This document shows positions 15,030-63,480 of a stretch of DNA of 64,000 nucleotides, piece after piece. The position numbers and the translations under genes are program-made. Under the pieces are notes generated by a model that saw nothing but the letters and a program-made list of their open reading frames with translations, ran no database searches and was not told the origin of the DNA. The stretch spans positions 184,574,001 through 184,638,000 of the forward strand of contig OZ024740.1 of assembly GCA_964016885.1 (NCBI GenBank). The letters are read 5' to 3'. The DNA comes from Eledone cirrhosa (taxonomy: Eukaryota). The stretch's first letter is position 1, and every line of letters starts with the position of its first letter.

Positions 15030-15229
15030 NNNNNNNNNNNNNNNNNNNNNNNNNNNNNNNNNNNNNNNNNNNNNNNNNNNNNNNNNNNNNNNNNNNNNNN
15101 NNNNNNNNNNNNNNNNNNNNNNNNNNNNNNNNNNNNNNNNNNNNNNNNNNNNNNNNNNNNNNNNNNNNNNNNNNNNNNNNNNNNNNNNNNNNNNNNNNNN
15201 NNNNNNNNNNNNNNNNNNNNNNNNNNNNN
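15030..15229. other. Assembly gap
   Basis: Run of 200 N. Confidence 1.
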
Positions 15230-21162: not shown

Positions 21163-21234
21163 TATTACATAGTCTAGTGGTTACAATTCCTGGCTTTCAC
21201 CCAGGGGGCCCAGGTTCGATTCCTGGCATGGGAA
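21163..21234 (+). pseudogene. tRNA-Glu(TTC) pseudogene
   Basis: AGTCTAGTGGTTA (A box/D arm), anticodon arm CCTGG-CTTTCAC-CCAGG, T arm CCAGG-TTCGATT-CCTGG, 3' CATGGGAA. The 5' acceptor strand reads TATTACA rather than TCCCATG, so the stem is broken. Confidence 0.85.
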
Positions 21235-29900: not shown

Positions 29901-30311
29901 ACACTAAAGAGCGGGACGTTCCAAGAAAGGTCTCTAGACGTCTGAAGAAATCTGGCCGTCCTGCCCCTGTTGGAGCGTAGACGGCTACTAGCCTGAAAGC
30001 ATTGCCTTCGCTGCCGGTCACGTCCAGCACCACCGACTTACCTTCTGGGTCCAGGAAGATGGCCCGTATCGCGAGATCCAAGCCTCTCCGAAAAAGGACA
30101 GCAACCCTCCCCCCGATCCTGGACGGCTGGGAGATGCGTATACATCGTAGCCGCCGAAGTTCGGTGCGAAGGCCTGTGCCTCGGAGATTCTGGTTTCACT
30201 GATGGCCACCACATCTATGTTTAGTGACCTGAGGTCATTGAGCAGGTGACCCTGCTTCCAAGATGACCCCAGGCCACGTGCATTTATACTGCCTATTCTG
30301 AGTACAGCCAT
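26929..30311 (-). pseudogene. A1 ORF2 (APE endonuclease + reverse transcriptase + zinc finger), disrupted
   Basis: Collinear ORF fragments 30018-30347, 29848-30081, 28754-29896, 27984-28727, 27848-28045, 27365-27829, 26929-27519. Confidence 0.9.
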
Positions 30312-30343
30312 GTTGGATGAGAAACGGGGCAAATGGGAAAGGG

Positions 30344-32110
30344 TCACTTACCTTGTTCGTGTGGTGAAGGGACAGTAGAACCGTCCCTTTCGCTGGTCAT
30401 GAGTGTTTCCAAGAGGATGTCAGTGTATATCATCTTGGTAACCGTCCCTCTGAAGTCTCCAACTGCGTTGGGGAATTTTTGTTTTAAAGGTTTGTATTGT
30501 TCTATTGAGATTTCGATGTTGCTTATGTTTGTCGGGAGAGTTCTTGGTGTTGGTGGGGTGTAGTAGTTTTTTTCCGTTATGTCTGTGTGCTGCTTTATAT
30601 ATTTTATGAGTTCTTTTTTTGCTATGTTTATGGCTGTGTACTTTTTGGGGGGAGGGGTGATTTGTTTGCCGTTTTCTTCTTGTTGCTGTTTGGTGTGTGT
30701 GTCTTGTTGTGTTTGCATTGTTGGTGTTTGTGGTGGTATTGCTGCAAGTTTCCTTGCTGCCTTTACCCCTCTTTGTATGCCTTCGCTTTAGGAGGGTGAA
30801 TCTAAGGGTTTTTTTGTTTTTTGTTTTTTGTGGCAGACCGTTTGCCACTTCAATCCCGCCTCAAACTCTATGTCGGATTCCGTAGCGTCTGGGAGGGGTA
30901 TGTGCTCCACGGCTGTTCTTGGTGGTAGTGGAGCCCTCTTCGGCAATTTTGTTTCCGGTGTAGCTACTTCAAATGTAGCTATTGGTGTTGCCGCTACTGA
31001 TGATGCTGCTTTAGTTATCCGTGGCCTTGGTACGGGTGCTACGGACGTTGCCCTCCTACTCACCATGGAAGGGGATTCTTCGTTTGTTGCCTGTCCTGCT
31101 CTTGGTAGCATAGGACCAGGTATTGAAAGGAGAGGGGCCCTCTTCGCTGTCTTCTGCAGGCAAAACGCCCTGGGGTGACCCTTCGACCCAGAGAGATAAC
31201 ATTTTGGCCGTCTTCCTTCTACAATTATAGGGAGTTGGAGTCCTTCCTCGATGTCTATGATATCGGGGATAGCCTCGATACATTCCTGGTCAGTTTGTAT
31301 AAGCATTTGCATGCCTATACCTGACCAGTTCTCTCTCCCCATTTTTTCTACTTGCAGCATGGTCGCCCTGTTCTCAATTCCAGCAAGGACAGACGCGGCC
31401 AGCCAAGGTATGGGCACGTCGGGTGGGACCTGGGTCACTTTGACCCTCATAATTTTTTGCCCGCAGTAGGAGGGCACCAAGACTATCTCCTCACTCTTTA
31501 GGGTTTACAAAGTGTGATACTTTGCTTCCTGGGGGGTGGCGAAAAGTACGTCTACTGTGGCGTACTTTCTGCCTCGGGTGATGTGGGGTTTTGCGTGCCC
31601 AGACGCACCCCAAGGCCTTTTGGATTTGAGCCTTCGTGGCTCTCTCCACTCGATGTGAGATTTTGCTTACGGTGCGGTAAGTCGCCGTCCGTAGCTGCTG
31701 GTCCTTGAAAAAATCGGGTGGAGGTTTCAGGGAAACTCTATTTGCGCTTCTTGTCACCATGGCCCTTGCGACTGCCATCTCCTCCTCTGTGACTAACACT
31801 GTCTCGATATTTCGGGCGACACCTGCAAAAGAAGTTGTCACTTTTTCTGCAGCACCACTATTGCTGCCGCTACTGGTCTTACTGGTGGTGCTGAGGCCGC
31901 TGTTACAAGTATCGGTGTTATTGCTGTTGTTTTCGCTGGTACAGTTGCTGCTGTGGCTGTTGTTATTGTCATTGTTATTGTCGTTCTCGACCTTACCGCT
32001 GTTATTTTTGTTATTGTCGTTCTCGACTTTACCGCTCTTATTTTTGTTGTTGCTGTTGTTATTGATGGTGTTGCTGTTGAGGGTGTTGTTGGTGTTATGT
32101 TGGTGTTGTT
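30344..32110 (-). pseudogene. A1 ORF1 (RRM-like region, degenerate CCHC knuckle, T/P/K-rich linkers), disrupted
   Basis: RRPKCYLSGSKGHPRAFC knuckle. The central domain aligns with 33304-33936 and 39391-39873 (PSxxG.R..R.RV....P....WL..., EN/DWSG..ME/EILI). Confidence 0.8.
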
Positions 32111-34830: not shown

Positions 34831-37800
34831 TTTCATTTATTAGCCACAAGGGCCGACATGTAGGGGACAATACAAAGACAGTGACACTGGGGTTTACAAT
34901 AAGGTCGAGTAAAAGTGCACAATGGCAAGACTAATTTAACAATGAAAATATAAAAATATAAAATAAATTATGCATAAATATAACAAAATAAATTCCCCGA
35001 TAGGGGGTGGACGACCCTGGGGTGACTCGGGTACACCACCAATCCTGAACCACCCTGCGTTTCTAGGGCACCCAGGGAGAGCACCCCTCTCCTCAAGTTA
35101 GCTAGCCTATAGGCGCATTGTCAGAGTAGGCTCATTCACACGAGCCATTCTCGCCACATTCACCCACCTTTTAGCAAATCTACTGGGGGACAGCACTTCT
35201 CTCTCCACCCTCACCTTCCTTTCCAGGTGAAACTTGAAGAAGTTGATGAGGGATTGGCCGGAGAGAAAAGTGTCTGTCTTCAGTCCTTTTAACCTGCTCC
35301 ACCATACAACCTCTTTTGCAACTGCCACCAGACAGAGGAAAATTTCCTGCTCTTTCTGACCTAAGGAAGGCGGTGGATCGATCTTCGCTATGGACTCGGC
35401 CGATAGCCGGATTCGTTCCACACGCGAGAGTAGCTGTTCGATATAACTCCACAAGTCAGTAATGCACGGACATTGGACGAGTGCGTGCAGAACGGTTTCG
35501 TCGTTCTGTGCGCATCTTGGGCAGGTCCGTCTGACAGCACTTCCGTGCCTGTAGAGTTTATCCCGAACCGGCAGTGCCCCCCGGTAGCACTGCCAAGCGA
35601 GGGATTTCTGGAAATTGTCCATCGTCCCCGGCTCAAAAGTCCTCCGGTACAGACTGGTCAATTCGACTTAGTCGAGGCCCAAAGCTTCTCCGAGTGCGTC
35701 ATCGCACTTTCCCACCACTAATCCTCTATAGAACTCGAGAGTAGAAGTTCCACTGATCGCATTGCCCGCTTGGTAGAGGGCAGCGAGTGTCAGTCACACA
35801 ATCTCGGTCTCTCATTGACCCAGATCTGCAGTTCAATCAAAGAAATGAGCTGCGGAAAGGCCCGTCTGATAAACGGCGACCACACCTGTTCACCGTTGAG
35901 GCAGAATATCTGGAGATGTCGCAGCCTCAACGCATGACTGCGCATCATTAGCCACGGCATGCCCAGCCCTCCGCGTAGAGGGTGATGGCAGCAGATGGAC
36001 CGCCTCACCAACGGAACTTGTCCCCTCCTCAAGAATTTGAAGAGGAGCCGTTCCAACTTGACGAGGCGCAGACGGGGACAAGGCACGACGGTCAGGCGGT
36101 AGTAGATGACGGACGCGATGTACGCATTCGCCACCTCCGCACGACCTTTCAGTGATAGCTTCCTCCCAGCCCATTTTTGGGTGAGACTGGCTACTCTGCT
36201 CGTTACCTCGTCCCAATTCTTTTCCACCTGGAGGTCTGGTCCGAACCAAACCCCGAGCAACTTTACCGGTCCATCCGTCCAGCGCCCCACGACGCTGTTG
36301 GACGGCATGGGCTTGCCTCTCCAGGTTCCGAGCTACATGCCCACCAACTTTTCCGGGTTAAGTTTGACTCCTGTCAATCTTTCATATTCCTTCGATAAGG
36401 TGCCGACCACCTCGATTTCTGAGGTGTTCGACACCATCACTGTGATGTCGTCCGCATAAGCCGACACCGCCTTTCCACGTCCCGGTTCGAGCGGGATGCC
36501 CTGCAACAGCTCCAGCTTCCGCAGTAAAGGCTCGAGAGTCAATACGTAGAGAAGGGAAGAGAGAGGGCACCATTGACGGACCGAACGGGAGAGCCGAAAT
36601 GGTTCCGAGAGGTGGCCATTAATTTTGACCACCGAGCAGGTGTCGCTGTGCATTGCAGCGATCCAGCTTCTGAAGACGAGGCCGAAGCCAGCCGCCTCGA
36701 GGACAGCCTCCAGGTACCGATGGTCGACCCTATCCAATGCTTTTGATTGATCTAAATTGATCAGAGCCCCACCGAAGCCAGGTTTACACCATACCCTCTC
36801 TATGATGTATCGCATTAGGTGGAGGTTGTCGTGTGTGGACCTGGTTGGGATTGCGCAAGTTTGCGCCTCCCCAACCAAATCCCCGACGTGAAGCGCCAAC
36901 CTCTTCGCTAACACCCTGGCCAAAATCTTAAACTCTGTGTTGAGCAGAACTATGGGCCTGAAATTGTCTAATGTGTCCCTCTTGTTCTCGTCTTTCCTTA
37001 TCAGCGTTACTATGCCCCGACTCACAGAACTGGGAATACTTCCGTTCTGCTGCCAATTGGAGATTGGAGAACAAGTCTGGCATATTTACATAAACTCGTA
37101 GGGCAGACCATCCAAACAGGGTGACCTGCGCTCATGCAGCCGACAAGGGCATCCTGAATCTCGGCTGAAGTAATCAGCCTTTCGCAGCGCCCAGCGTCGG
37201 CCATCGAGAGTTGCGGCAAGCCATCGACGTAGGGACTGAAGTCCGCCACCGTCTCTGACTCGCCACTTCCCCCGAACAACCGAGCAAAATGTTGGCGAAA
37301 GGCTCCACACATTTGCTTGGAATCGTTCAGCTCGTGTTCATCTCGGTCCGTCAAAGACCGACTCGTGGTTTTATTACGACGCTGCGCCTCTGCCACACGG
37401 CCCCATCGAACAGCTTTGGTTCCCTCTTTTCTCAGAGCATGCACCTTAGATCTGACTATGCAACCTTCGTGTTTCGCATTGAAGAAATGGTCAAATGCCA
37501 TTCTCGCCGCTAGCACATCAGTTGCAATGCCACTACCAATAGCCTCGTCTAACTTATCTAACAACTACCCCTCCTTTCTATTTTTCTCTAAAGCTACTTC
37601 TTTGCTAAACTCTATGAACATTACACTAATCGCTCTTTTGAGAGACCCCACCATCTATTGTTGACGACTCCCCCTGTCAACTTTTTCTTAACTAAATTGT
37701 TGACCTGGTCCCTGTAATCCTTACGTGCCGGAAAGGACATGTTCAGCTTCCAGTAACCAGGTCCTAACCTACGCGTCTTATCTAGGTCGACCATACAGAT

Positions 37801-40702
37801 CACAAACTTGTGATCTTAATAGGCGACCGTTTCAAAAGTTGGACAGCTTACACCATTTCTGTCTATTTTCCTAATGAATATCCTGTCTATATACGATCTA
37901 GATGACCCCATGCGGTTAGTCCAGGTCCACACTGGCGCATTAGGGAAATCTAGTCGGTACCTGTCAGACAGTTGGAACTGGCTGATCAGGTTCTTGAGGC
38001 TATTGCACCACTTGCTCCTATTGGATACTCCCACTCAGTCCCAGCGTGCATCTAAGATCCTATTCCAGTCCCCCGCTAAGAGTAAAGGGCGAGGCGTAAC
38101 CAGAAAAGCTTCCAGGCGTCTAAAGAAGTCCGGCCGTCCTGCCCCAGTTGGAGGGGAGGTAGACGGCCACCAGTCTAAAGGCACCACCTTCATTATTTTT
38201 CACGTCCAGGACCACCTACTTCCCGTCTGGGTCCCGGAAGATTGACCTTACCTCGAGATCCAGGTCTTTCTTAAACAACACTGCCACCCCACCTCCCGTT
38301 CCCGGCCGACTAACAGATGCAAAGATCTGACAGTCGTCGAAAATGGGGGCTAGTGCACGCGTGTCGGAAATTCTGGGCTCGCTGACGGCAATTACATCCA
38401 TTTCTAGAGACCTGAGGTCGTTGAGTAGGTGACCCTGCTTGCAGGACGATCCCAGGCCTCGAACATTTAAACTTTCTACTCTTAATACGGCCATGTTGGC
38501 AGGTTAAAAGAGAGAGAGGAAAGGTTTACTTACCTTCCGGGCTCTTGTGAAGGTCGGGTGATTCGATCTCCATAGTTGGTGGGGTTTGTTTTGGGAACCC
38601 CTTTAAAAGTCTTGAAGTGGGTTTTACGTTCGGGGTTCGCACGTCCCATGGAAAGCTGTCTCATATCTCTTTGTATAAATCGAGCGATATTCGCACCAGA
38701 AACAAATCTTCTGGCACGCGAAATGTGCTCAATTTAAAAATTTCACCCTCTTTTTGTATATTTTCACTTCGTGCTACGAGGGCCATCAGTTCCTTGTTGG
38801 CCCTCCTGACAAGCACGAAGTTTTGTATGTTTTGTTGGTGTGATTTTATTTGTTTGCGTGGATGTGGTGGTGATGGTTTTGGTGGTGTTGTTTCGGTTGT
38901 GTCTATGTTTGTTGTGAGTGCGGTGTCTGTGGTTTCAGATGTTTGTGTGTGTATTTGTTCTTGTGTTTGTTTAGGTTGTTTGCGTTTGGGGGATTCTGGT
39001 GATGGTGATGGTGGTTTTGATGTTGGTGTTATTGGAAAGATGTTTGCATGGGTGGTGTCTGCATTTTTTATTGTGGGTGATTTTGAGCTTTGTTGAGTTT
39101 TTTTTTTCCTTTTTGTGTTTCCTTTTTTGTATTTTGGGGGATTTGGGTTTTCCCTCATCTTCACTACTGGTAGATGAGGGGTCTGTGTCTGAAAGTGTGT
39201 CTGTGTGTCTGTTTATATTTTTTATTGATGTGTATATTTTGGGGAGGAGGGGAAATTTGACAACTTTCCCTGTTCCCCCCTGGGTGGTCAATGTTGGTGG
39301 TGGTCTTTCTGTTGGTGTTATTGTTGGTGGTTTTGCCGGTGCTGGTGTTGGTTGTGGTCCTCGCCTCGGCGTCAGCAGCAGCGGAGCCCTTCAACCACTT
39401 GCATCTTTCAGCAGTTGAAGGAAGAAGGCTCGCAAATGGGTTTTTTCCCCACAAACAAAACAATGCGGCCTTTTGCCCTCAGACATAATATGAATAATCG
39501 TCCCATTCTGAAGGCAGATATGGTCCGGGATTGTCTTCGCATTCTCGGGCCTGATCTGAAGAAGTATCTCCAGGTCAACCCCGGACCAGTCCTCTCTGGC
39601 CATTCTTGTCACTTCAATCGGGACGTTATCCGTCCCCTCCACAATCACACTTTCCAGAAGCCAGCACATGTCAAGTCCTGGTAGGATTCTGGGAATGCGG
39701 AGACGGGCCGTTCTTTTTCCAATGTGGGAGGGGTACATTATGACCTTGCTGGTTTTGCAAGGAGTCATAGCGTGTTTCATAGCGAGGGCTTCTGACTTGA
39801 ACAGCAACGAAATGGTGCCGTACTGTTTGCTCCTCGCTATGTATTCAGTGTTTTCTCTAATGCACCTCGACATCTGCTTGTGGAATTAATGCTGCCCTTT
39901 TGCTTTGTGCTGAGATGCATCTATAATGCACCGTTCTGCGCTCCACTGCCTCAATAGCTTCTACCGGGACAGTTAAGTTCGCCCAGGTTTGCTCTTGCTT
40001 AATGAGCTTCCAGGCCTGGGCCAACTTTTCATATTTGTTTGAGAGGTCCATGTTGAAAGATGACCTCTTTTTTGCTGCTGCCGCAGCGAAAGTGTTCTTC
40101 TTGTTGTCGTTGGGGGTGTTGTTGTTGTTGTTCTTGTTGGTGGTGTTGTTATCACTGTCGCTGTTATCATTGTTGTCCTTGGTGCCACCGTTGTTCTCGG
40201 TGCAGTTGGTATAGTTGCTGTTGGTGTTGTCGCTATTTGTTTTCATGTTAGTGGTGTTGATATTGTTGTTGCATTTGTCATTTTTCTTTGTTATCTGTAT
40301 TTTCGTTGTCGCTGTTACTGTCATTTTTTTCAAAATTAGAGTTCTCAGTGTTGTTATCATTGCTGACTTTGTTTACATTGTTTGTGGTGTTGTTTTCTTT
40401 TATCAATTTCTGTTAATTTGGTCATAGTGCTCCTCTCAACATTTACGTCATTGTCGCACGACAGCAGACATATCGCTGAGGGGCGTGGCTCAGCCATGAT
40501 TTTTTTTTCTTTTTTTTTCGATAATTTTTTTTAATGTAAAGAGTTCAAATATTTCGGTCAAAAGGCCCAAATATTATTCTTTCCCCTTCACAGGGCAAAG
40601 TTCAAGGGCTTGTATGCCTTACACCACAACAAAAAAATTCAATAAATAAGTTTTGACAGGTAAATAAATAAACTTACGGGAGAGAGCAAAAAGACGCTGC
40701 TC
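34828..40702 (-). mobile_element. Tx1/L1-clade LINE, copy B (apparently full length, about 5.9 kb; frameshifted)
   Basis: 5' UTR, ORF1 from ATG at 40497 (knuckle KRPHCFVCGEKTHLRAF), ORF2 from 38494 (MAVLRVESLNVRGL) through RT (NFRPIVLLN, LDQSKALD, AYADD) to CPRC..H..C ending at 35107, then a 3' UTR with AATAAA. Confidence 0.92.
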
Positions 40703-45289: not shown

Positions 45290-45475
45290 ATAATTATACT
45301 GTGTGGTTTATATATTATTATACATTAAATATTTAGCTCTGTTACTTACATAGAGCACTCTTCATTCCTTTTACTTTTTCCACAGAAACTTCAACACTTA
45401 TACACATATATATATATATATATTGTAATAAAATAACAGGAGGCTGGACTTATGTAAATCCTTGAAAGGTTTATT

Positions 45476-45533
45476 ATACTATGATCATTTCAATGACCGG
45501 GTTCCGTATGAATCCGGTGTTATCATCAGGTAT
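45476..45533 (-). ncRNA. Hammerhead motif (family B), left arm
   Basis: ATAC-CTGATGA-TAACACCGG...CCGGTCATT-GAAA-TGATCA-TA-GTAT with palindromic helix III. Confidence 0.75.
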
Positions 45534-45627
45534 TCGAAATATAACAAAGGAATATAACAGATAAAATCCATGGGGCTGAAAATCATACACAAGGGGATGA
45601 CTGTTATATTCCTTTGTTATATTTCGA

Positions 45628-45685
45628 TTACCTGATGATATCCCCGGATTGATACAGAAGCCGGTCATTGAAATGATCATAGTAT
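45628..45685 (+). ncRNA. Hammerhead motif (family B), right arm
   Basis: TTAC-CTGATGA-TATCCCCGG...CCGGTCATT-GAAA-TGATCA-TA-GTAT; more decayed than the left arm. Confidence 0.65.
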
Positions 45686-45871
45686 AATAAACCTTTCAAA
45701 GATTTACACAAGTCCAGCCTCCTGTTATTTTATTATAATAATTAGCTCCGTACTTGCACCACCAACTACACAAACGAAGACGGGTGAGTTGCATTACGTT
45801 GAGTACTCTCCATTACATCGAGATTGACCATACAGAATGACCAATTCTATCCAGTGGTGAACCAGCAAACC

Positions 45872-45944
<73 letters not shown>

Positions 45945-46094
45945 TTATGCTTTGGGAGGGTCATGTTGCCAATAAAAAACACACGCACCAGATGCTTTCA
46001 CTCCAATTTATTATAAATTAAATTTATAAATTTAAGAATTTATAAACTTCCGGTTGGTTGGTTGGTTCCACAACCGGACGGTTGTTCATATATT

Positions 46095-46137
46095 GTCAAA
46101 GTTCTTTCGTCACACATTCTGTGATATCTTCAGTGAC
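46095..46137 (-). ncRNA. Minimal hammerhead motif (family C), left arm
   Basis: GTCA-CTGAAGA-T-ATCACA-GAATG-TGTGAC-GAAA-GAAC-TT-TGAC. Confidence 0.65.
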
Positions 46138-46254
46138 TGGGGATTCTTTTCTTTGTTTTGTGCCTCTCCTTTGTTTTGTCCTACGCCATCTTGAAAAACA
46201 AGATGGCGTAGGACAAAACAAAGGAGAGGCACAAATCAAAGAAAAGAATCCCCA

Positions 46255-46297
46255 GTCACTGAAGAGGTCACAGAATGTGTGACGAAAGAAATTTGAC
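46255..46297 (+). ncRNA. Minimal hammerhead motif (family C), right arm
   Basis: GTCA-CTGAAGA-G-GTCACA-GAATG-TGTGAC-GAAA-GAAA-TT-TGAC. Confidence 0.7.
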
Positions 46298-46710
46298 AAT
46301 ATATGAACAACCATCCGGTTGTGGACGCAACCAACCGGAAATTTATAAATTCTTAAATTTATAAATTTAATTTATAATAAATTGAAGGGAAAGCAACTGG
46401 TGCTTATGTTTCTTATTGGCTAGATGACCCTCCCAAAGCATAACAATATCGGTTTCAACACAGGTTTTCAGATAAAGAATCTTGCTAAACAAATTCAGAA
46501 ACGAAATATATATATATATATTTATATATTTATGTATGTATATATATGAAGGATTCACTCTGACAGCAGAGCATCTGTCATTTCAACAGCTAGATCCGAG
46601 CACGAGCTCAGCTGTTGGGGTCCCAAATCTTTCATATTACCCAATCTACCACCCCAAGTATCAAGTTCTCTGGTGAGTAATGGCCTAACTGGTTTTTACT
46701 GCATCCATTA

Positions 46711-47380: not shown

Positions 47381-47593
47381 ATATATATAGTATTAATTAT
47401 ACTATTTATGGTTATGCAAATACAAAAACCTTTTGTAGTTATATATATTTTTATAAGCCCTAAATAGTGGTAGGCAGTAATATATTACTACCTTATTACC
47501 AGTAAGTTAAATAGCTCAATGTAATAACATCAGATGTTTTACAGAGCAGTTATATGAATTATAAGAATCAAAGAACTGTTCAAAACATTTTTA

Positions 47594-47640
47594 TGCTTAC
47601 AACTGTTTCCTCCAAACCAAGGTTTGGATTCTTCGGAGCA
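47594..47640 (-). ncRNA. Hammerhead-like motif (family D), left arm
   Basis: TGCT-CCGAAGA-A-TCCAAACC-TT-GGTTTGGA-G-GAAA-CAGTTG-TA-AGCA; core has U4C. Confidence 0.6.
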
Positions 47641-48159
47641 ATTTATTATTGAATGAACACTTATATGACCTCCTATTCACCCAAGAGACATACAGATACA
47701 TATGCAAATATTGTGGGTCAACATTCATTACAGCATTTAGTGTGGCAGTACACATTTAGAGATTACATTCATATTAAAAGATACAATCAAAAATACAGGT
47801 TAAAATACATGAAATTAAGCGGTTATAGAGTGCAATGGTTATATGTGTGGCAAGCACGTGCTTCTTGTTTATATAGTGTGGCAGAGAGTTACGTGTAATA
47901 GAAGCATTTAAGCAGGTAATCTATATAAACAAGACGCACGTGCTTGCCACACATATAACCATTGCACTCTATAACCGCTTAATTTCATGTTATATTTTAA
48001 CCTATATTTTTGATTGTATCTTTTAATATGAATGTAATCTCTAAATGTGTACTGCAACACTAAATGCTGTAATGAATGTTGACCCACAATATTTGCATAT
48101 GTATCTGTAAGTCTCTTGGGTGAAAAGGAAATCATATAAGTGTTCATTCAATAATAAAT

Positions 48160-48206
48160 TGCTCCGAAGAATCCAAACCTCGGTTTGGAGGAAACAGTTG
48201 TAAGCA
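48160..48206 (+). ncRNA. Hammerhead-like motif (family D), right arm
   Basis: TGCT-CCGAAGA-A-TCCAAACC-TC-GGTTTGGA-G-GAAA-CAGTTG-TA-AGCA; core has U4C. Confidence 0.6.
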
Positions 48207-48251
48207 TAAAAATGTTTTGAACAGTTCTTTGATTCTTATAATTCCTAATTC

Positions 48252-53500: not shown

Positions 53501-54459
53501 AATCATTATGTTAATGTAAATCACGATTTGTTTCAAAGTGAGAAATCCTATCGATGATATTATCAGCTTCACTAGTTGTTCTTTGATATTATAAATATAC
53601 TTAAATATGAAGCTACACTTACTTTAACAAATTGTTTGAAATACAGTTCTACTCATTTTCCTAAAGTTCTCATCTGTATTTTCCAGCTTCAGTGCATGAT
53701 AATTTCTCTTGTGAGAGAAGTCAATCTTGCATAGAAATATGGGTTCATGGGGTACCATATTAACGGTTTGCATTGGCTAAATAGTTCTTTTCCTCCTGAT
53801 ACATGCACGTTACTACCCAAATCCATGACCAAGAGAGAATTAACATTCAGTGACTTAGTCTACCTTATCTATATCAAACAAAAAAACACAAGGATTGACA
53901 CTGCAAATTTACTATTCTCCTTTTACTTTGCTCCACTTTTCAGATTAAATGACACGACGGTTTAGTTATATTCAAATATTGTAAGCGCGTCATTGAGAAT
54001 ATCATTACGATGTTTGCGAAAATGTAAAACAAATATTTATATCCCAGACAGAAATGTTAACTTTTATTTCTATATACTTTTTTTATATAATTTTCTGCTG
54101 GTGGATTTTGTATTTCGCTCTACAGCTTCACCATTAACAAGAGGAAAGCAACAATGACAACAGTGACATTAACAACAACAACTCTACCATTAACAAGAGG
54201 AAGCCAACCCCAGCATCAGTGACTCACCTCCAGCCACAAGGTCCTATGACAGACTGCTAAGTTGCTCACATGTGTGAGGTCTTTCTGGGTCTTTCTGCTG
54301 GGGACAACTCCCTGTTTTCTCCCCCCCCCCCCATTTTTTTTTGTACATTTATCCATTCACTCATTCATTTACTAACATTCTACCTTCCTGTGTCTCCCCC
54401 TCCATGCAGCCTATTCTTTTCTCTCTTGTTTTCTGACACCTCCAGATATATAGGTGAGC

Positions 54460-57400
54460 TATGAGGCCCTCTTACCAGCACTTTCACTTCCACCCACCCC
54501 TGATGCCGCTCGGTGCCCCAGTCCCCGGCCCACGCCCCACACCCCATCCCTCTAAGCTGACACCTGCAGCACTTGCAGCACCACTAAAAAATGGAAGAGG
54601 CGCCGGAACTGTTTGGGGTGCGGCTGCTTCCACCCCACCACCTCACCTGCATTGGCTTGACTCATCGAGCTTCCAATGCCCTCGCAGCATGGAGGTGCAG
54701 GAGCTGCCTCCTCCTCCACATCTTCCCAGCCACGGCCGTCTGGCACACCACCAGATGGGACAGTGAGCTTGCCTGATACCCGAGCCTCGCTGGTCAACAT
54801 CGCTTATCTCAGGCGGCTCCAGAAGATCCCACTCAGGATCCCGAGAGCGGCACGGGTGCCGGTAGCTGATGCCCTCGCTTCCTCAATTGAGAGCGCCAGT
54901 GACTGGGAGCGGCTGTTCTATTTCGCCCCACTCGCCCTCGGCCTCCCCAGTTCTGGTGCTGACCGGGACGGGCGGTCAACAGAAGCCTTCGTCAAGGCGA
55001 ATGTCTCATCCTTTGGGTGAGCGCTCATTCCAAGCATGCCCAGGGACATCACACAACCCACCATCTGGTACCCCCTATCCTCCACCCCCGAGGCCAGCGC
55101 CAAGCGTTTGCGTGACCAGATAAATGCCAAGCTTATCATGGGTGATGTCTCGGCCACAGTCAGCGTTGTTGCCTCAGAGGACACTGTACTCCAACCCACC
55201 GAGGAGTCCTTGGCTGCTCTGCGACTCAAACACCCTGATCCACCCACTGATCTCAGGCCCATACCCCCACCCGACCCCCACTTTCTCGTTCTGGCTTCTG
55301 ATGCAGACATCATGTCTGCCATCAGGTCCTTCCCAGCTAGCAGCTGCGGAGGTGTTGATGGTCTCCGACCATGCCACTTCAAGGAGTTGACATCCCCCCT
55401 CTCTGCTGAGGCCGGGCGCTGCCATCTGAGTGCAATTGTGGGGCTCATCAATAGGCTCATCTATGGTGCCCTTGACCCTTACGCCCGAGGTCTTTATTTT
55501 TTGGCCAGCCTCACTGCCCTCAGGAAGAAAGAGGGTGGCATACACCCCATTGCTGTGGGCAATGTCTTCCGGAGGCTGGCTGACAAGGTGATCTGCAGGT
55601 CTGTAACACACGAACTGGGTGAGGAGTTTAGTCCAGTGCAACTGGGTGTCGGCGTGTCCGGTGGCTGTGAGAGGGCCGCTCATGCAACCACGCAGTTCTT
55701 CAACAGCTGCCCATCGGAACCAGCATACAGGGACTCCAGATACCTCATTGTCAAGCTTGACATGAGGAATGCCTTCAACCCTTTACGCCGGGATCATCTG
55801 CTCGAGGCCTGCCTCAGCTGAGCCTCCTCTGCCTACCCACTGGCCTACCTGTCATATGGAGCCTCGAGCATGCTCCTTACTGCTGATACGGTCATACCCT
55901 CGGCTACTGGGGTACAACAGGACGACCCTTTGGGACCCCTCCTGTTCGCCCTTGGTATTGACAACATCGACCGGAGTATCATGGCCCCTCTGGATGATGT
56001 TATGTTGAGCGGGCCCGTACGGACGGTCTGCCATTACCTTCAATCGGTGGTTCCTGCCCTGGCGGGAATCGGCCTCCAGGGTAACTCGACAAGTCGGAGG
56101 TGGTGAATGTCAGCCTCGATACTGCGAGCGTTTCAGCCTCCGTCTTGGACATGCGGTCCATTCTCCGCCAGGTTCAGGTGGCCTCCAAAGAGGATGTCCT
56201 TATCCTCGGGTCACTGATCCACCCGCCGGCCATCCGCTCCACCATCAGGTCCAGGCTTCAACAGCTCCACACTCTCACGAGCCGACTGAGTTTGATAGAT
56301 GGCCACCCAGCTTTCTTTCTGCTGAGGAACTGCTTCACCATGCCGAAGCTCCTCTATACACTCCGCAGTGCTCCGTGCTACACCCAGACATCTCTCCTCG
56401 CTGACCTCGATACTTGTATCCGAGCAGCAGCCGAGGAGATATGCAACGTCAAGTTTGACGACATAGGGTGGCAACAGGCCACTTTACCTGTCAGGTATGG
56501 CGGCCTTGGCCTCCGGTCGCCGATCTCACTAGCTTTGCCGGCGTATCTTTCGTCGGTAATTTCGTGCCGCATCCTCGTCAGCAGGGTTTTTCAAAACACA
56601 ACAGAACCCTCTGTGTTCAGAGAATGTGAGGCCGCCTGTGAGATGTGGGACCGGCTGGGACTTAGTCCAGTTGACATCCCCCTCCTTCTCCCCCTGTTGA
56701 CGTCAAGTCCCCCCAACGCACTTGGGATGCTATCCAGTGCAGCCTGGCCTCAGACAGGCTCAGGCGCCAGCTTGACCAGCACCACCTTGCTTGTTTTTGT
56801 GTGGCCTCCAAACTCCACAGTGATGCCTGGCTCCATGCCCTGCCCCCTTCTCCACTGGCACGCAGCTAGACAACCATAGCTTGCGCATCAGCGTTTGCCT
56901 GAGGCTCGGCCTCCGGATCTGCCAGCCACACCAATGTAACTGTGGTTCCACCGTGGACTCTTTCGGCCTCCATCCGCTTTCCTGTTTACACAGTCCCGGC
57001 CGCATTCCACGCCAAGCTGCACTCAACGAGGTCATTAAGTATGGCTTGGATGCTGCAGGCCTCCCTTCCCAGCTCGAGCCGGTGGGGCTGGATCGAGGGG
57101 ACGGCAAAAGGCCAGATGGTATGACCATCTACCCATTCCGCGGTGGCAAACCCCTCGTCTGGGATGCCACTTGCACCGACACTTTCTGCAGCTGCAACCT
57201 GGTGCAGTCTGCGACTGACCCAGGTCCTGCTGCACGTCGGGCTGAGGGGCCAAACTCCTCAAATACTGGTCGCTCTCCGACAGGTTTGCGTCATACCCCT
57301 GGCATTGGAGACTTCTGGTGTCCTCGGCCCCAGGGATACCTCCTTACTCACCACCATGGGCGCTGAGCTGGCTAGCCGCAGGTGTAAGCCCCGCGACTTG

Positions 57401-57560
57401 GAGTGGCTTTTCCAGCGCGGCTCCCTTGCCGTCCCCCGGGGAAACGCCTTCTCCATTCTGTCCGCCGGGGTTGTGGGTGGGCCCCATTGTGTACCATTTT
57501 AGTTGTTGTATACAGATATTAACTCATCAATCCCATTGTCCTAAAACTCTATATAAAAGA
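54460..57560 (+). mobile_element. CRE-clade-like non-LTR retrotransposon (PHD-like finger + RT + CCHC + restriction-like endonuclease), disrupted
   Basis: GVDGLRP, LTALRKKEGGIHPIAVGNVFRRL, QLGVGVSGGCE, KLDMRNAFN, GVQQDDPLGPLLF, LDD, QATLPVRYGGLGL, CNCG..DSFGLHPLSC, KRPDGMT..PLVWDATC, PLALETSG. GC-rich; several stops and frameshifts. Confidence 0.88.
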
Positions 57561-57866
57561 GAGATGTTTCTTGGTTGGTTGGTTTAATCACACACAAATT
57601 ATACACACACACACATCTAAAGTGAGAGAGAGACAGGGAGAGGAGCAGAGAGAGAGAGTGTGGCAATGAACGCGGGTACTCCACATATATATATATATAT
57701 ATATATATATTGTTATACTTTGGGAGGGTCATGTTGCCAATAAGAAACACACGCACCAGTTGCTTTCACTTCAATTTAATTTAATATATATTTATAAATT
57801 TACAAATTTATAAATTTCTGGTTGGTTGGTTGGTTCCACAACCAGATAGTTGTTTATATATATATA

Positions 57867-57909
57867 GTCATAGTTCTTTCGTCACACACTCTGTGACCTC
57901 TTCAGTGAC
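57867..57909 (-). ncRNA. Minimal hammerhead motif (family C) in the Penelope 3' repeat
   Basis: GTCA-CTGAAGA-G-GTCACA-GAGTG-TGTGAC-GAAA-GAAC-TA-TGAC, on the same strand as the PLE ORF. Confidence 0.82.
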
Positions 57910-58218
57910 TGGGGATTTCTTTCTTCGTTTCTGTGCCTTTCCTTTCTTCTATCCTACGCCATTTTGTTTGTGTGTGGGTTGCGTGCTCAGTTTGCGCATG
58001 CGCCACATCCGGGTGTCTGTGTGTGTTTGTGTTCATTTTTCTATTTTTCTATTTATATTTGTTTGTTTATTTATTTTTTATTTATTTATTTATTGTTGGT
58101 TGGTTGTTTGTTCTATGTGTGTGTGTGTTTTCATTTTGTCTTGTGTGTGTTTTCATTTTGTGTGTGTTTTCAATTGTAAGTTGTTTGTTCTATGTGTGTG
58201 TGTGTTTTCATTTTGTCC

Positions 58219-60681
58219 TTAATTGTAAGTTGTGATGTTGCTGTTCCACTCATATTTTCTATTTAATTTTGGTTTTAATTCTTTTATGCTTACTGCCTCT
58301 GTAATTTGCCTAAACATTGCGTCTTTCTTGTGTGTGGATTCTATTTTTATTTCTATGCTCTCTAATTTACCCCTGTGTTCTATCTTAGCATGTTGGTAGA
58401 GCACAGATGATTCTTTACTATCTTGGAGGTCTCGCCAGTGTTCATTTATTCGTTCCTCTATACTACGAGCTGTCTCACCTATGTACACTATATTTTTGTT
58501 TCTACATTGTCCTTCAGTACATCTTATGCTATATACTACATTTCTAGTTTTACAGTTAATATGGAGGCTTATTTTACAGGTTATACATTTCTTATCTATA
58601 CATGAGGGTCTTTGGAACGGGTATGTCTTGCTAATAAGTGTTTTTACGGAGGTACCAGGTCTTTCTACTATCTTAATAATGAGATTATGTTTCTTTAGGG
58701 CCCTTCTAAATTTGTAGGCTAGTTCGCCTCTAGGGGTTGTATTGATGAACATTACACTCTGGTATTTATTGCTATCATACCATGAGTTTATTCTATTGGC
58801 CTTGTTCTTAGTTCTTTCTATTCTATTCCAAAATTTGCTCCTATACAAGGGGCAGGTCCCATTTATGTCATTATTTACCATTTTTTCCCATTTGGTTCTG
58901 GCTCCTTTATACACTCTGATTCTATCTCTCTGATTGTAGCCAGAGAACTGCATACGGTGGATGAAGTGTTGTATGTGTCTCTCTAGTTCTTCGGGGTTGC
59001 ACATGCGGGACACATTTCTCATCACCCGTACCAAATCCGCAATCAGTATGTTGATTTTGGTATGGTCCGAAATGGCCGAGTTTCGGTGGATCAGATGTTT
59101 GGAAGTCATGGGTTTGGCATAATGGGAATGGAGGATTTGTTTTTGGTTGTTAATAGTATCTAACCAGAGCTCTGTGTCTAGTACAGGTAATCGATGGTTG
59201 GGGTGTCTACTTGGGTAGTCTATAGTAACTCTAATGCTCTGGTGGATGGAGTTTGCTATTTGCTGGATGCTTTCCATTGTGTTTTTCTCTGGTTCCTGAC
59301 TGTTCTTTAGTGGGGGTGTCTTAACTACGATGTTTATATCATCTACGTAGCGGGAGTACATTATCAGGGTTAAGCTGTCTTCTAATTGTTCATTAAGTTT
59401 TTGTTTAAGTCTACTGTCCCACCATACCATGAACAAGTTAGCTATGTCGCCTGCAATGCTAACACCAATGGCTGCTCCTTCCTCTTGGGCATATGTTTTA
59501 CCATTAAATTTGAACATATGTTCCTTAAGGGTTAATTTTATGCTGGCCCCTACCGCATGTGCAATCATTTTCTTCAGTTCATCGTGGTTTTCGGGTGTCC
59601 GTATGGCTCTGGTCCACCTGTTCCATCTATCTGTGTGGGTTTTCTTGGCCATTGAGGTAATGGTAGGTGGTCTGCCTCTTGCTGGTCTTGTAGGGCACAG
59701 GTTGCTAAGGTCATAAGTGTCTAGGTAACTATTACTATGGGTAAGCTTAAGTAGAAGTCCCAGCTCACTGGTATCAATCCCACGGAACTCAACCTTGCTC
59801 TCGCTGATCATTTCGACGCATTTCTCCACAGCAAAATCCACGTCAATAGATGGATACAGGGACACAACATCCATACTGCCTATTATGCAGTTTGTTAGGT
59901 CCCCAGATCGGTTACCCGCGCCGATTCTGCTGAGGAGGTCCTCCGTGCTGTCACACACATCTGGGGACATCTCAATGATGGGGCGTATGATCAGGGAGAG
60001 GAAGTAGGACAGTCTGTAGTTACTAGCAATGTTAGCCCCACAGACTGGCCGTGTTGGTGGTCCCGCGACAGGGTCCCAGCCCGTTTTATGGTCTTTTCGA
60101 AGCCCATACAACGCCGGCACGTCATTGTTCCAGGCCTGGAAGTTGTTGGCAGTCCTTTTGTTGGGCTGCATTATATTTGTCCACATCACCATATGGGCAT
60201 TGAGGGTTTTTTCTCTATCCTCATGCTCCTGTGGTGTTACCTCTCTTGTGTTAGTGATGTGGGGTTGCATTGCCTGGATGTAGTTTGGCAGGCTGTCAAC
60301 CGACATTCTGCCAGACTTGTCTGTTGGAAAGCATGCTATCTCTCCATTACGCGAGCGCTGCATGAGCTTACGCAAGCCATTTGCAGATTCTTCTCCCAGT
60401 TGCTGGGCCTCTATTCTATTATGCTTCTTGCTATACTGTTCTATAATATTTCTAAGTTCGGATTTAGCTATACTAAATTGTGCTTCTGTTTGTTCATCGA
60501 CCTGCGACGGCAACTGCGTGCGTTTGTTAGAAACGAAATATATATATATACATTTATATATAAAGACAAAGAGAGAGAGGGAGATTTGCGTGTTCTTGAT
60601 TGTTTCACGGCCAGCGTCTCTGACTGCATCAGCGAAGATTTGTGTGTGTGTGTGTTTGCGTGTGTGTGAGTGGCATCCCAC
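58219..60681 (-). CDS. Penelope-like reverse transcriptase / GIY-YIG endonuclease (open frame; first ~60 codons probably not genuine)
   Basis: DKSG, LYGLRKDHK, PTRPVCGAN, SMDVVSLYPSID, QEEGAAIG, RYVDD, LPVLD, HYAKP, then CxxC...VVYSIRC...YIGETARSIEERINEH...EAVSIKELKPKLN. Confidence 0.9.
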   Translation of the reverse strand: MGCHSHTRKHTHTQIFADAVRDAGRETIKNTQISLSLFVFIYKCIYIYFVSNKRTQLPSQVDEQTEAQFSIAKSELRNIIEQYSKKHNRIEAQQLGEESANGLRKLMQRSRNGEIACFPTDKSGRMSVDSLPNYIQAMQPHITNTREVTPQEHEDREKTLNAHMVMWTNIMQPNKRTANNFQAWNNDVPALYGLRKDHKTGWDPVAGPPTRPVCGANIASNYRLSYFLSLIIRPIIEMSPDVCDSTEDLLSRIGAGNRSGDLTNCIIGSMDVVSLYPSIDVDFAVEKCVEMISESKVEFRGIDTSELGLLLKLTHSNSYLDTYDLSNLCPTRPARGRPPTITSMAKKTHTDRWNRWTRAIRTPENHDELKKMIAHAVGASIKLTLKEHMFKFNGKTYAQEEGAAIGVSIAGDIANLFMVWWDSRLKQKLNEQLEDSLTLIMYSRYVDDINIVVKTPPLKNSQEPEKNTMESIQQIANSIHQSIRVTIDYPSRHPNHRLPVLDTELWLDTINNQKQILHSHYAKPMTSKHLIHRNSAISDHTKINILIADLVRVMRNVSRMCNPEELERHIQHFIHRMQFSGYNQRDRIRVYKGARTKWEKMVNNDINGTCPLYRSKFWNRIERTKNKANRINSWYDSNKYQSVMFINTTPRGELAYKFRRALKKHNLIIKIVERPGTSVKTLISKTYPFQRPSCIDKKCITCKISLHINCKTRNVVYSIRCTEGQCRNKNIVYIGETARSIEERINEHWRDLQDSKESSVLYQHAKIEHRGKLESIEIKIESTHKKDAMFRQITEAVSIKELKPKLNRKYEWNSNITTYN

Positions 60682-60939
60682 AATAGATCCAAGTATCAGT
60701 AGATTTGTTGTTTTAAACCAGTCATTGAAAGTATTTTACAGAACACAGAAATAAATGATACTATTAATCTACGATGTAAATTAATTTAGCTTTTTGAGGA
60801 TAGAGTCATATTATTATTGACCTAATTCAGATGACAGAGAGTCAACCTATTCTCTAAGGCTGCGATTTGCATTTATTTCTATTTTTTATATTGCTTTATA
60901 TTGTTTATTTTTCACAATATTTTCCAAGAAAATTAATTT

Positions 60940-63480
60940 CATCTATCGGTGTCCACCAAATGGTTGAAATCTTCAAGCAAAAGAGAAACTCAGAGATGGG
61001 AAACAGAAATATTAAGGCAAGAAGAAAGACGATGGAAACTTTCTGAAAGTGAACAGAACTTGAGTAGGGAAACAGAAAGATTAAGGCAAGAGGAAAGACA
61101 ATCGCAACAAACGAAGGCTGAATATGAAAATCACCGAGAGGCAAAGAGTTGTGATGCAAATGAGGTGGGCACAAAGGACTCTTCAAGGCAAAATAAACTG
61201 GCTAAGAGCTACAATTTCCTATGATCCATCGAGAAATTATAGAAATGATTAGAAATTATAGAAATGATTATAGTGGTGATTAGTAGCATGGATATTATAT
61301 GCAGTAGTTGTGGAGTGAGAAAATGGAAAGGAGAAACACTTAGTAGAATAGGTCAGATTTCCACTGATAGCAGACCCACCACCTGTTATTCGTATACTGC
61401 TTACAGACCATACTAACGAAGCTAAACACTTCAGGAGCAATGTTATGCGGTATAATGCTGGATTTCAGATGACGTCCTTTGGAGCTGAAAAATACCATAC
61501 TGACTATGGTTATTTCACAACGTTTAAAATCCAAGGACAATGCTACCATTTAATCAGCGGTTTACTCCCTCGAGCTAATGAGGAAACAAAATGCATTCAA
61601 GCTTAATTTTTGGGCAACAATGAACAAGAAGCTACTCAACGATGCAGAAATATTTCTGGTGGTCTTCGGCTACAAGTTATTAGCAGTCTGCAAAATATGC
61701 TTCATGAAAACCATCATTACATAAGAGCATTGAAATTTGCGTTAGAAAAGAAAAAAGGCAAACCCCCATCTATAAAATTACTATTAAACCTGATAAAAAA
61801 ACAGCAAAGGAACACAAAAGACGTTACAACAAAATACTGCAATGTGAAGTGGCTGTACTTATCGTCAATGAACAACACAAATCCAGAGACAACATTGTAC
61901 CAGAGAGATCTGACCAATTACTAAGAATGTCAGAGACACACAGAGCATATGATGCTCTTCGGTATCCTTTGATATTTTGGAGAGGTCAGGATGGATACAA
62001 TTTCGCCTTAAGACAATTAAACCTTAGTACAGGTGAGGAAACTAATAGATTGGTCAGTTGCAAATGTTTTTATTAATTTCAGTTCATAATAAGAGATTGC
62101 TTTAACCATATCCTAAGAATGGGAAGACTTACAAGCCAATTAATGATTCATGTGTATGCCAAGATTGAAGCTAAATGGTTGGCATTCATTAAAACAACCA
62201 AGCTAAACCTAGAGCAGAGCAATACATCCATTTTAGAGACACCATTATAATTGATGGAATGAATTCTTCCAGTGTTGGTCAGCCAGTCATTCTGCCATCT
62301 AGCTTCACAGGCAGCCCACGCTATGTGGCTGAGCGCACACAAGATACCATTGCATATGCAAGAAAATTTGGTTGTCCAGATCGTTTCATTAAATTTGCAT
62401 GCAACCCTACATGGCCAGAAATTCAAAATGAACTGTTTGAACACCAATATGGAAAAGTTTCATAGAATCATTGCCAAAGTTTTTAATGAGAAACAGAAGA
62501 TCTTCACATGATAACCAATTGAATGAAATTAAAACATGCCCAACCGGGAGATATATTTCTAGTAATGAAGCCATATGGAGAATCTTTGGTTTCGACATGC
62601 ACAATAGAAACCCAGTAGGAAGTACACAATAGAAACCCTGTAGGAAGTTTCGTGCCTGTCTGAAATAATGATTTCAGACAGGCACGAAACTTCCTACAGG
62701 GACGAGAGCCTATATTGTAAACGCTTGCCTCAAAGTCTCAACTATATGACAACAAGTTCAGCGATTGCCTTTGAGGACAAACATGAAAGTGCAGTTGTAC
62801 AATGATGCAGAAATTGATACAGAAATTAAAACAGCTAATTACACAGGGTGATGGAAATATGCAACAAAATGAAAATGGAAATATCTGTAATACAACAAAT
62901 GAACTAATTGATCAAGTATTTCCAAATGTTGCCTCAAATTATATCAATCTGTTATGGCTATTTGAGCAAGCAATTTTAGCACCAAAAAATAATATGGTAA
63001 ATCAGATCAACTAATGCCTGCTCGATACGCTCCCAGGGGAGGTTCATACGAAGCTGTTAATTATCCTGCAGAGTTCCTTAATAGTCTGGAACTTCCTGGA
63101 CTTCCTCCACATAAATTAATGCTAAAGATTGGAACACCCACCAACCTTTTGAAAAACCTGGACCCACCACGTCTATGCAATGGCATGCGCTTAACAGTGA
63201 TGAAACATCTCCTAGAGGTCACTATTCTTGGAGGCAATCATCAAAGCAAAAATGCATTTATTCCAAAGATTCCACTTATCCCTTCATCTACCGAGCTGCC
63301 ATTAGAGCCAATTTTGCTATGATCATAAATAAAGCTCAATTTTGCTATGATCATAAATAAGTCTCAGAGTTGTAGGATTGAATCTGAGAGAATCATGTTT
63401 TACCCATGGTCATTATATATTGGTTGTACACGAGTGGGAACATCTAGAAATCTTCATATAGTATGCACAGTAAAACAAAG
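60940..63480 (+). mobile_element. Decayed, internally deleted Helitron (Rep + PIF1 helicase)
   Basis: [126 protein letters not shown]. Confidence 0.92.
62636..62701. repeat. Perfect hairpin (arms about 31 bp) at a Helitron deletion junction
   Basis: CCCTGTAGGAAGTTTCGTGCCTGTCTGAAAT-AATG-ATTTCAGACAGGCACGAAACTTCCTACAGGG. Confidence 0.9.

Follow-up and report, generated by a model that had tools for sequence, protein, structure and literature searches.

A fossil retrotransposon with an N-terminal PHD finger and its apparently undescribed, probably CRE-like, RLE lineage

Retrotransposons with a restriction-like endonuclease (RLE) are thought to choose their targets through N-terminal C2H2 or Myb domains, and R2-type proteins are being developed as gene-insertion tools. 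The RLE nicks the target DNA, and the element RNA is copied by target-primed reverse transcription. In the searchable text of the sources cited here, CRE-clade elements have an N-terminal zinc-binding motif (PMC12278014, PMC12857005), the N-terminal domains of R2 recognise target DNA (PMC11204384), and RLE clades are described with a Ulp1 protease or with between one and three zinc fingers at the N-terminus (in part PMC12278014). PHD fingers have been described in other transposons. Some L2/CR1 elements encode one ORF whose N-terminus carries a PHD (PMC4120745), and PHDs occur in Chlamys and other Chlamydomonas elements (PMC8557442). An earlier sequence-only reading of the DNA studied here also stated that CR1/L2-type LINEs carry PHD fingers. 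A figure legend in PMC9977147 names PHD for one or more of the elements that it covers, among them a Dualen element, which has both APE and RLE. As of 2014, according to the searchable part of PMC4120745, there was no functional study of a LINE PHD.

Within the searchable literature, including PMC13580325, PMC4640811 and PMC6222470, we found no report of a CRE-like or RLE-only element that carries a PHD; Repbase and key reviews lay outside that scope, and an existing note is quite possible. Here, we describe such a finger in a 64,000-nucleotide stretch of the Eledone cirrhosa genome (the window) and compare the element that carries it with its intact relatives.

The split finger and the element around it

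The sequence-only reading had placed a C4HC3 PHD pattern with its conserved Trp at 54565-54707, interrupted by a 5-nt excess, CACCC, at 54631-54635. Both the coordinates and the pattern proved exact, and the excess was verified. The codon of Cys1 lies at 54565. The frame of position 54301 reads CSTC-STTKKWKRRRN-CLGC-GCF up to 54630, and the frame of 54300 continues from 54636 to 54707 as HHLTC-IGLTHRASNALAA-WRCRSC. Across the break, this gives C-x2-C-x11-C-x2-C-x4-H-x2-C-x13-W-x-C-x2-C, with measured spacers of 11, 4 and 13 residues and the Trp two residues before Cys6, as in PHD fingers. The features of the element are as follows.

54200..54564, + strand: probable 5' UTR and ORF start region, suggested by GC content, which climbs from about 54200; boundary not fixed
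54565..54630, + strand: PHD N-half (Cys1-Cys4), by frame reading; profile score 14.0 bits
54577-54609, + strand: basic loop STTKKWKRRRN, within the PHD N-half
54631..54635, + strand: 5-nt excess CACCC, first frameshift
54636..54707, + strand: PHD C-half with His, Cys5, the conserved Trp and Cys6-Cys7; Pfam PHD E 0.043, profile score 29.9 bits
54709..54780, + strand: Ser/Pro-rich linker with the second frameshift (about 54709-54733); the equivalent linker of a modelled relative is of low confidence
54781..56110, + strand: N-terminal extension and reverse transcriptase (RT), with the RT core from about 55525
56111..56934, + strand: thumb and linker region, with frameshifts near 56675-56708 and 56851
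56935..56985, + strand: CCHC zinc knuckle, C-x1-C-x9-H-x3-C
56986..57502, + strand: RLE, 64% identical over 140 aa to the relative P0009; ORF end at about 57493-57502

To score the finger, we built a profile from 21 natural fingers of intact relatives. Among 2,639 six-frame peptides from the window, the two halves of the finger ranked first and second (29.9 and 14.0 bits), and the next peptide scored 8.3 bits. With the break read through as X, the whole finger reached 45.1 bits (E 1.1e-12), against a maximum of 5.2 bits in 1,000 shuffled controls. The C-half also shares 13 of 28 residues with the finger of P0004, an intact relative. Pfam was less decisive: the C-half alone matched the PHD family weakly (E 0.043, 14.3 bits, under the cut-off of 24), and the N-half alone matched nothing. 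The C4HC3 pattern in the window is real and not a product of chance.

The rest of the copy is heavily decayed. It contains seven frameshifts, including the one within the finger and the one just past it at 54709-54733, which is absent from the sequence-only description. Stops interrupt the region of the N-terminal extension and RT at 55018 and 55819, a frameshift follows at 56091, and five amino acids are deleted at 55990, at the RT catalytic motif. Two further frameshifts lie in the RLE (near 57246-57261 and 57287-57296), which retains RPD at 57109-57117 and has RQ in place of the RH motif. Because of these frameshifts, stops and the catalytic-motif deletion, we regard the copy as a dead RT-RLE element. 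The second frameshift also means that no continuous frame joins PHD to RT in this copy, even if the first break is bridged.

Pfam found no matches in the RT and RLE fragments of this copy, and the 64-kb window holds no second copy from which a consensus could be built. We saw neither a poly(A) tail nor a spliced-leader (SL) RNA target at the copy, and found no target-site duplication above chance (the longest word shared by the flanks of this old copy is 8 nt). An Rfam scan of the window revealed no rDNA around the element and no RNA gene near it, although Rfam may lack the SL RNA of the host; its sole match was a weak tRNA at 21170-21226 on the + strand (34.1 bits), possibly a SINE head.

Several other features were observed in the window. 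Two 46-nt copies, 56 nt apart, occupy 54122-54223, just upstream of the GC rise, and may belong to the element as a repeat in its 5' UTR. Long palindromic MITE-like repeats lie at 45421-46449, 47553-48247 and 57685-57969, the last of them a partial repeat just downstream of the element. At 58222-60735 (- strand), an open frame of 838 aa encodes the RT and GIY-YIG domains of an apparently intact Penelope-like element, and Helitron fragments with Helitron_like_N and Pif1 2B domains lie at 62193-63319 (+ strand). Two related LINE copies with RT matches, which by motif we take to be L1/Tx1-like, are 73.5% identical over 3.4 kb (26941-30354 and 35134-38536, - strand). A run of 200 N at 15030-15229 marks an assembly gap.

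Intact relatives and their phylogeny

Relatives of the element were collected by an ORF search from the RT side, which yielded 106 longer proteins, and by a profile search, which yielded 1,326 relatives, of which 120 were listed; 202 relatives were examined overall. The full N-terminal C4HC3-Trp pattern occurs in 21 of the 106 longer proteins and the finger in 45 of the 202. In 39 of these 45, finger, RT motif, CCHC knuckle and RPD lie within a single ORF. One ORF joining PHD to RT is thus shown in relatives and not in the broken window copy. Intact relatives are colinear with window positions 54535-57493, from the finger to the end of the RLE, at approximately 49-50% identity over 940-959 aligned residues. 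Given these single-ORF proteins, the outcomes that the sequence-only reading had named as fatal to its claim, among them the lack of a continuous frame from finger to RT, did not arise.

Pfam PF00628 was detected in 19 of the 21 pattern-positive relatives at E values up to 0.05, and in 7 at or above the cut-off. All eight zinc ligands are invariant in the fingers of 20 aligned relatives. The Trp before Cys6 is present in 44 of the 45 pattern-positive relatives, a count to be read with the fact that the pattern itself demanded an aromatic residue there. Many relatives that lack the finger are N-terminally truncated predictions (39 of the 94 in the 95-row tree set). The clade nearest to the window copy includes two Octopus sinensis proteins, neither with a finger in its predicted sequence, and the host range of the relatives rests on few named sources.

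We also searched 1.84 billion representative proteins. Among the best 150 hits, 71 multi-finger proteins were set aside, leaving 79 single-finger hits. For 61 of these, a lenient threshold gave a further match to the element body; the remaining 18 are short proteins of 83-224 aa. An ESM Atlas search with residues 1-240 of P0004 gave no usable match. These results bear on the possibility that the pattern arose by chance or is a fragment of a host gene adjoining the element. Two frameshifts must be bridged to join finger and RT, and each half of the finger falls under the Pfam cut-off, as that account would have it. However, the window copy is colinear from the finger through the end of the RLE with three intact relatives, most single-finger hits have a match to the element body under that lenient threshold, and the intact single-ORF relatives already refute it. 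We consider it highly improbable.

In a FastTree phylogeny of 95 rows, from which 12 of the 106 relatives were dropped as too short, the window copy falls in a 45-row clade (support 100) that holds 20 of the 21 PHD rows and none of the 20 rows with another finger. IQ-TREE on a subset of 45 rows agreed with this (support 99), and a 136-row tree, which left out 58 truncated rows, placed the window in a 60-row clade (SH-aLRT 98); all of these are quick trees without bootstrap. Besides the window copy, the 60-row clade contains 45 rows with a full finger, 8 with a partial one, 2 that are truncated and 3 in which no finger was detected. Another kind of zinc finger was found in 55 rows, 54 of them outside the PHD clade and one inside (P0126, with a different Cys cluster). 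In the sister lineages, the same N-terminal slot is mostly occupied by a C-x2-C...H-G...C finger.

Mapped on the 136-row tree, the finger label requires 8 changes, compared with 43.6 when labels are shuffled. The finger is therefore strongly clustered, yet a clean single gain does not describe its history. Five rows with the PHD label fall outside the 60-row clade, and P0134 is an apparent pattern mislabel. A strict single origin is not shown by the tree: at least seven of the eight changes are forced by its starred branches, and several changes concern truncated or degenerate ORFs.

By sequence, P0004 matches a Diplonema protein annotated as SLACS at 31% identity over 790 aa (E 2e-73; the name is a database annotation), whereas its matches to R2 cover just some 150 aa. 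The label that fits best is therefore CRE-like, and we favour the view that the lineage consists of CRE-like RLE non-LTR retrotransposons. The class given in the sequence-only reading is thereby favoured, as a probable placement. Collectively, these data indicate a sizeable lineage of PHD-RT-RLE elements, apparently undescribed in the searchable literature, of which the window copy is a fossil representative.

Fold, residues and possible function of the finger

We modeled the finger of P0004, a relative of the window copy, from 20 sequences and obtained a pLDDT of 89.5. Foldseek returned the PHD fingers of BPTF, PHF8 and AL1 as top matches (TM about 0.8), and VIA-align gave Z scores up to 7.6, which is middling for a small domain, with an rmsd of 1.6-2.4 over 49-54 aligned residues. 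PHD chains also ranked first in a sequence-profile search of structures, and the nearest solved structures are the H3K4 readers BPTF, PHF8, PHF2 and AL1. RING and C1 folds were rejected, as they appeared merely as weak Pfam side matches and the structure searches were led by PHD. Among single proteins, P0005 matched Pfam C1_1 and not PHD, and P0006 matched neither. The full-length P0004 model (pLDDT 89.5, pTM 0.84) carries the finger on a low-confidence linker (residues 67-80, pLDDT <50), and its best structural matches are R2 proteins (E about 1e-24, TM 0.5-0.57). As modeled on this relative, the N-terminal finger is thus confirmed as a true PHD fold. Together with the single-ORF relatives, the model substantiates the claim that a PHD finger stands at the N-terminus of an RT-RLE protein.

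We take the H3K4me3 cage to consist of a Trp two residues before the His and a Met three residues before Cys3, positions that are visible in the PHF8/PHF2 alignments. We further presume that reader PHDs contact the H3 tail through an acidic surface and through an acidic residue that follows Cys3. Among 100 element-linked fingers, the cage Trp is present in 20 (an aromatic in 36), the Met in 5 and both in 5, and D or E follows Cys3 in 11. Between Cys2 and Cys3, the loop of 94 fingers contains a K/R pair; the median net charge is +5, and in 20 aligned fingers a loop Lys is the sole near-invariant position besides the ligands and the Trp. In the window finger, the Met, post-Cys3 acidic and Trp positions are occupied by Arg, Leu and Phe, respectively, and the charge is +9 overall and +6 in the loop. 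The host control (P = 0.003) was small, with 5 fingers that came from 3 of the 10 proteins named for it and whose sequences are not independent; these fingers had a median charge of -2, and all 5 had D or E after Cys3.

The sequence-only reading had proposed a histone reader that guides insertion to chromatin. Its PHD fold stands, and a minority of fingers (20 of 100) keep the Trp; the window finger and most others lack the cage and acidic residues and are strongly basic. In its present form, the proposal is that, in some sub-lineages at least, the finger reads the H3 tail and directs insertion to chromatin that bears marks. The canonical C4HC3 fold, the H3K4me3 readers as nearest sequences and structures, the fingers with Trp or with both Trp and Met, and the canonical look of P0084 and P0177 outside the main clade speak for it, and the searchable text of PMC4120745 advances the same role, as a proposal only, for CR1/L2 PHDs. 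Against it, 95 of 100 fingers lack the Trp-Met pair and 89 lack D or E after Cys3. The loop beside what we take to be the H3-pairing strand is basic, like the H3 tail, and the window finger departs from all three key positions. On balance, this role seems rather unlikely.

Another possibility is that the finger acts within the ribonucleoprotein (RNP), binding the element's own RNA, aiding nuclear import by means of its basic run or binding a host protein, with no part in target choice. The basic surface and flexible tether would suit this role, and, to our knowledge, single-ORF elements have no ORF1 chaperone. However, an import signal would hardly need a folded domain with two zincs that persists throughout a divergent clade, and the finger occupies the slot of the DNA-binding fingers of R2 (PMC11204384, in its searchable part). 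We consider an RNP role quite unlikely.

We lean slightly towards a third reading, in which the PHD finger is a basic module that grips DNA or nucleosomes rather than a reader of histone marks. This reading is favored by the residue and charge counts, by the single ORF and PHD fold in relatives, by the flexible linker of the full-length model, by the exchange of finger types in the N-terminal slot, by the DNA binding of the R2 N-terminus and by the precedent of BAZ1A-PHD, which lacks cage and acidic residues and binds DNA via lysines and no histone peptides, as far as the available text of PMC5636791 goes. The same source cautions that a basic pair alone is insufficient for DNA binding. Other counterpoints are that the closest solved structures are H3K4 readers, that 20 of 100 fingers keep the cage Trp and 36 have an aromatic there (Phe in the window finger), that the host control is small, that the basic run could be a nuclear localisation signal and that a ubiquitin protease domain in thirteen relatives hints at contacts with chromatin proteins. 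As is known for the family, the RLE of the element protein would nick the target DNA, and the element's own RNA would then be copied by target-primed reverse transcription. Were the finger a DNA grip, the PHD, on its flexible tether and in the slot taken by zinc fingers in sister lineages and by the DNA-binding ZF and Myb domains in R2, would touch the backbone of the DNA close to the nick with the Lys/Arg loop between Cys2 and Cys3. It would thereby keep the RNP bound to chromatin while showing little preference for sequence.

The thirteen relatives carry a ubiquitin-specific protease (USP; Pfam UCH) C-terminal to the RLE in the same predicted ORF.

UCH relatives: P0017, P0019, P0028, P0029, P0041, P0044, P0045, P0067, P0088, P0099, P0107, P0108, P0111

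By simple patterns, the Cys box is present in 12 of 13 and the His box in 8 of 13, with several divergent types. Pairwise identities over long alignments lie between about 22% and 74%, a spread suggestive of several sources or at least two. The seven UCH relatives placed in the 95-row tree all fall within the PHD clade, and one UCH relative is named from the barnacle Amphibalanus amphitrite; unlike these fusions, the window copy ends after the RLE. The USP may reflect fusion with neighboring host genes in the gene models. The searchable literature yielded no report of a ubiquitin hydrolase in a CRE-like or RLE-only element. In a wider proposal, the lineage would have replaced its sequence-specific zinc fingers with a set of chromatin tools. 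The PHD would pick nucleosomal targets and, in several sub-lineages, the captured C-terminal USP would act during insertion to strip ubiquitin off chromatin or off the protein of the element itself. We regard this as unlikely.

Other module arrangements were observed among the relatives. In P0084, outside the main clade, a PHD of canonical appearance, with the cage Met and Trp and an acidic loop, precedes an RFX DNA-binding domain (residues 27-171). P0177, a SLACS-annotated protein of Nymphon striatum also outside that clade, has a PHD at residues 56-99 in which the cage Trp is retained. Two stretches of PHD sequence occur in P0111 besides its UCH domain, and P0083 has ankyrin-like repeats at its N-terminus. 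The N-termini of P0126, P0066 and P0097 hold a Cys-rich cluster in the finger slot, which Pfam did not match and which we take to resemble a CRC/tesmin domain. As P0126 lies inside the PHD clade, this suggests a module swap.

Comparison with known systems

PHD capture by other transposons was already known, and the copy in the window is a dead remnant; what is apparently new, within the searchable literature, is a PHD in a CRE-like, RLE-only lineage. A natural clade with a PHD fold in the N-terminal slot implies that the slot is modular. Its intact relatives are compact proteins of about 970-1050 aa with which one could ask whether a reader fold directs insertion, be it by way of the DNA backbone, a nucleosome or a histone mark.

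Like the CRE clade (SLACS, CZAR and CRE1/2, with MoTeR and FoTeR related), the lineage combines RT, a CCHC knuckle and an RLE in a single ORF, but its N-terminal module is a C4HC3 PHD and not of C2H2 type. In 39 of the 45 PHD-bearing relatives, the RLE motif reads C-x1/2-C-x9-H-x3-C-x8-RH[A/S/T/K/Y]...PD-x15-D. The SLACS/CRE motif quoted in the available text of PMC12857005 has x7-8, x9-10, RHD/N and x12-14. With spacers of 9, 8 and 15 and RH[A/S/T/K/Y], the lineage differs in this motif from the trypanosomatid SLACS, CZAR and CRE1, the CRE elements in the narrow sense.

R2 elements (R2Bm, R2Tg) likewise have an N-terminal zinc module, RT and RLE. In contrast to R2, to which sequence identity is only 15-18%, no rDNA surrounds the window copy, and no Myb domain was found by Pfam in the 30 of 106 relatives scanned. 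The combination that marks R2, a zinc-finger and Myb N-terminus with a 28S rDNA target, is thus not that of this lineage.

Among cellular proteins, the PHDs of BPTF, PHF8/PHF2 and AL1, which are H3K4me3 readers, share the fold (TM about 0.8), but the element fingers mostly lack the cage and acidic residues and have a basic loop. They are more like the DNA binder BAZ1A-PHD in being basic with cage and acidic residues missing, a likeness in the combination of residues. Finally, the lineage resembles the PHD-bearing CR1/L2 LINEs and the Chlamys Penelope-like elements in being a transposon with a captured PHD. Those elements use APE or GIY-YIG nucleases, whereas this lineage, with no APE endonuclease among the Pfam matches of the 30 relatives, pairs its PHD finger with an RLE.
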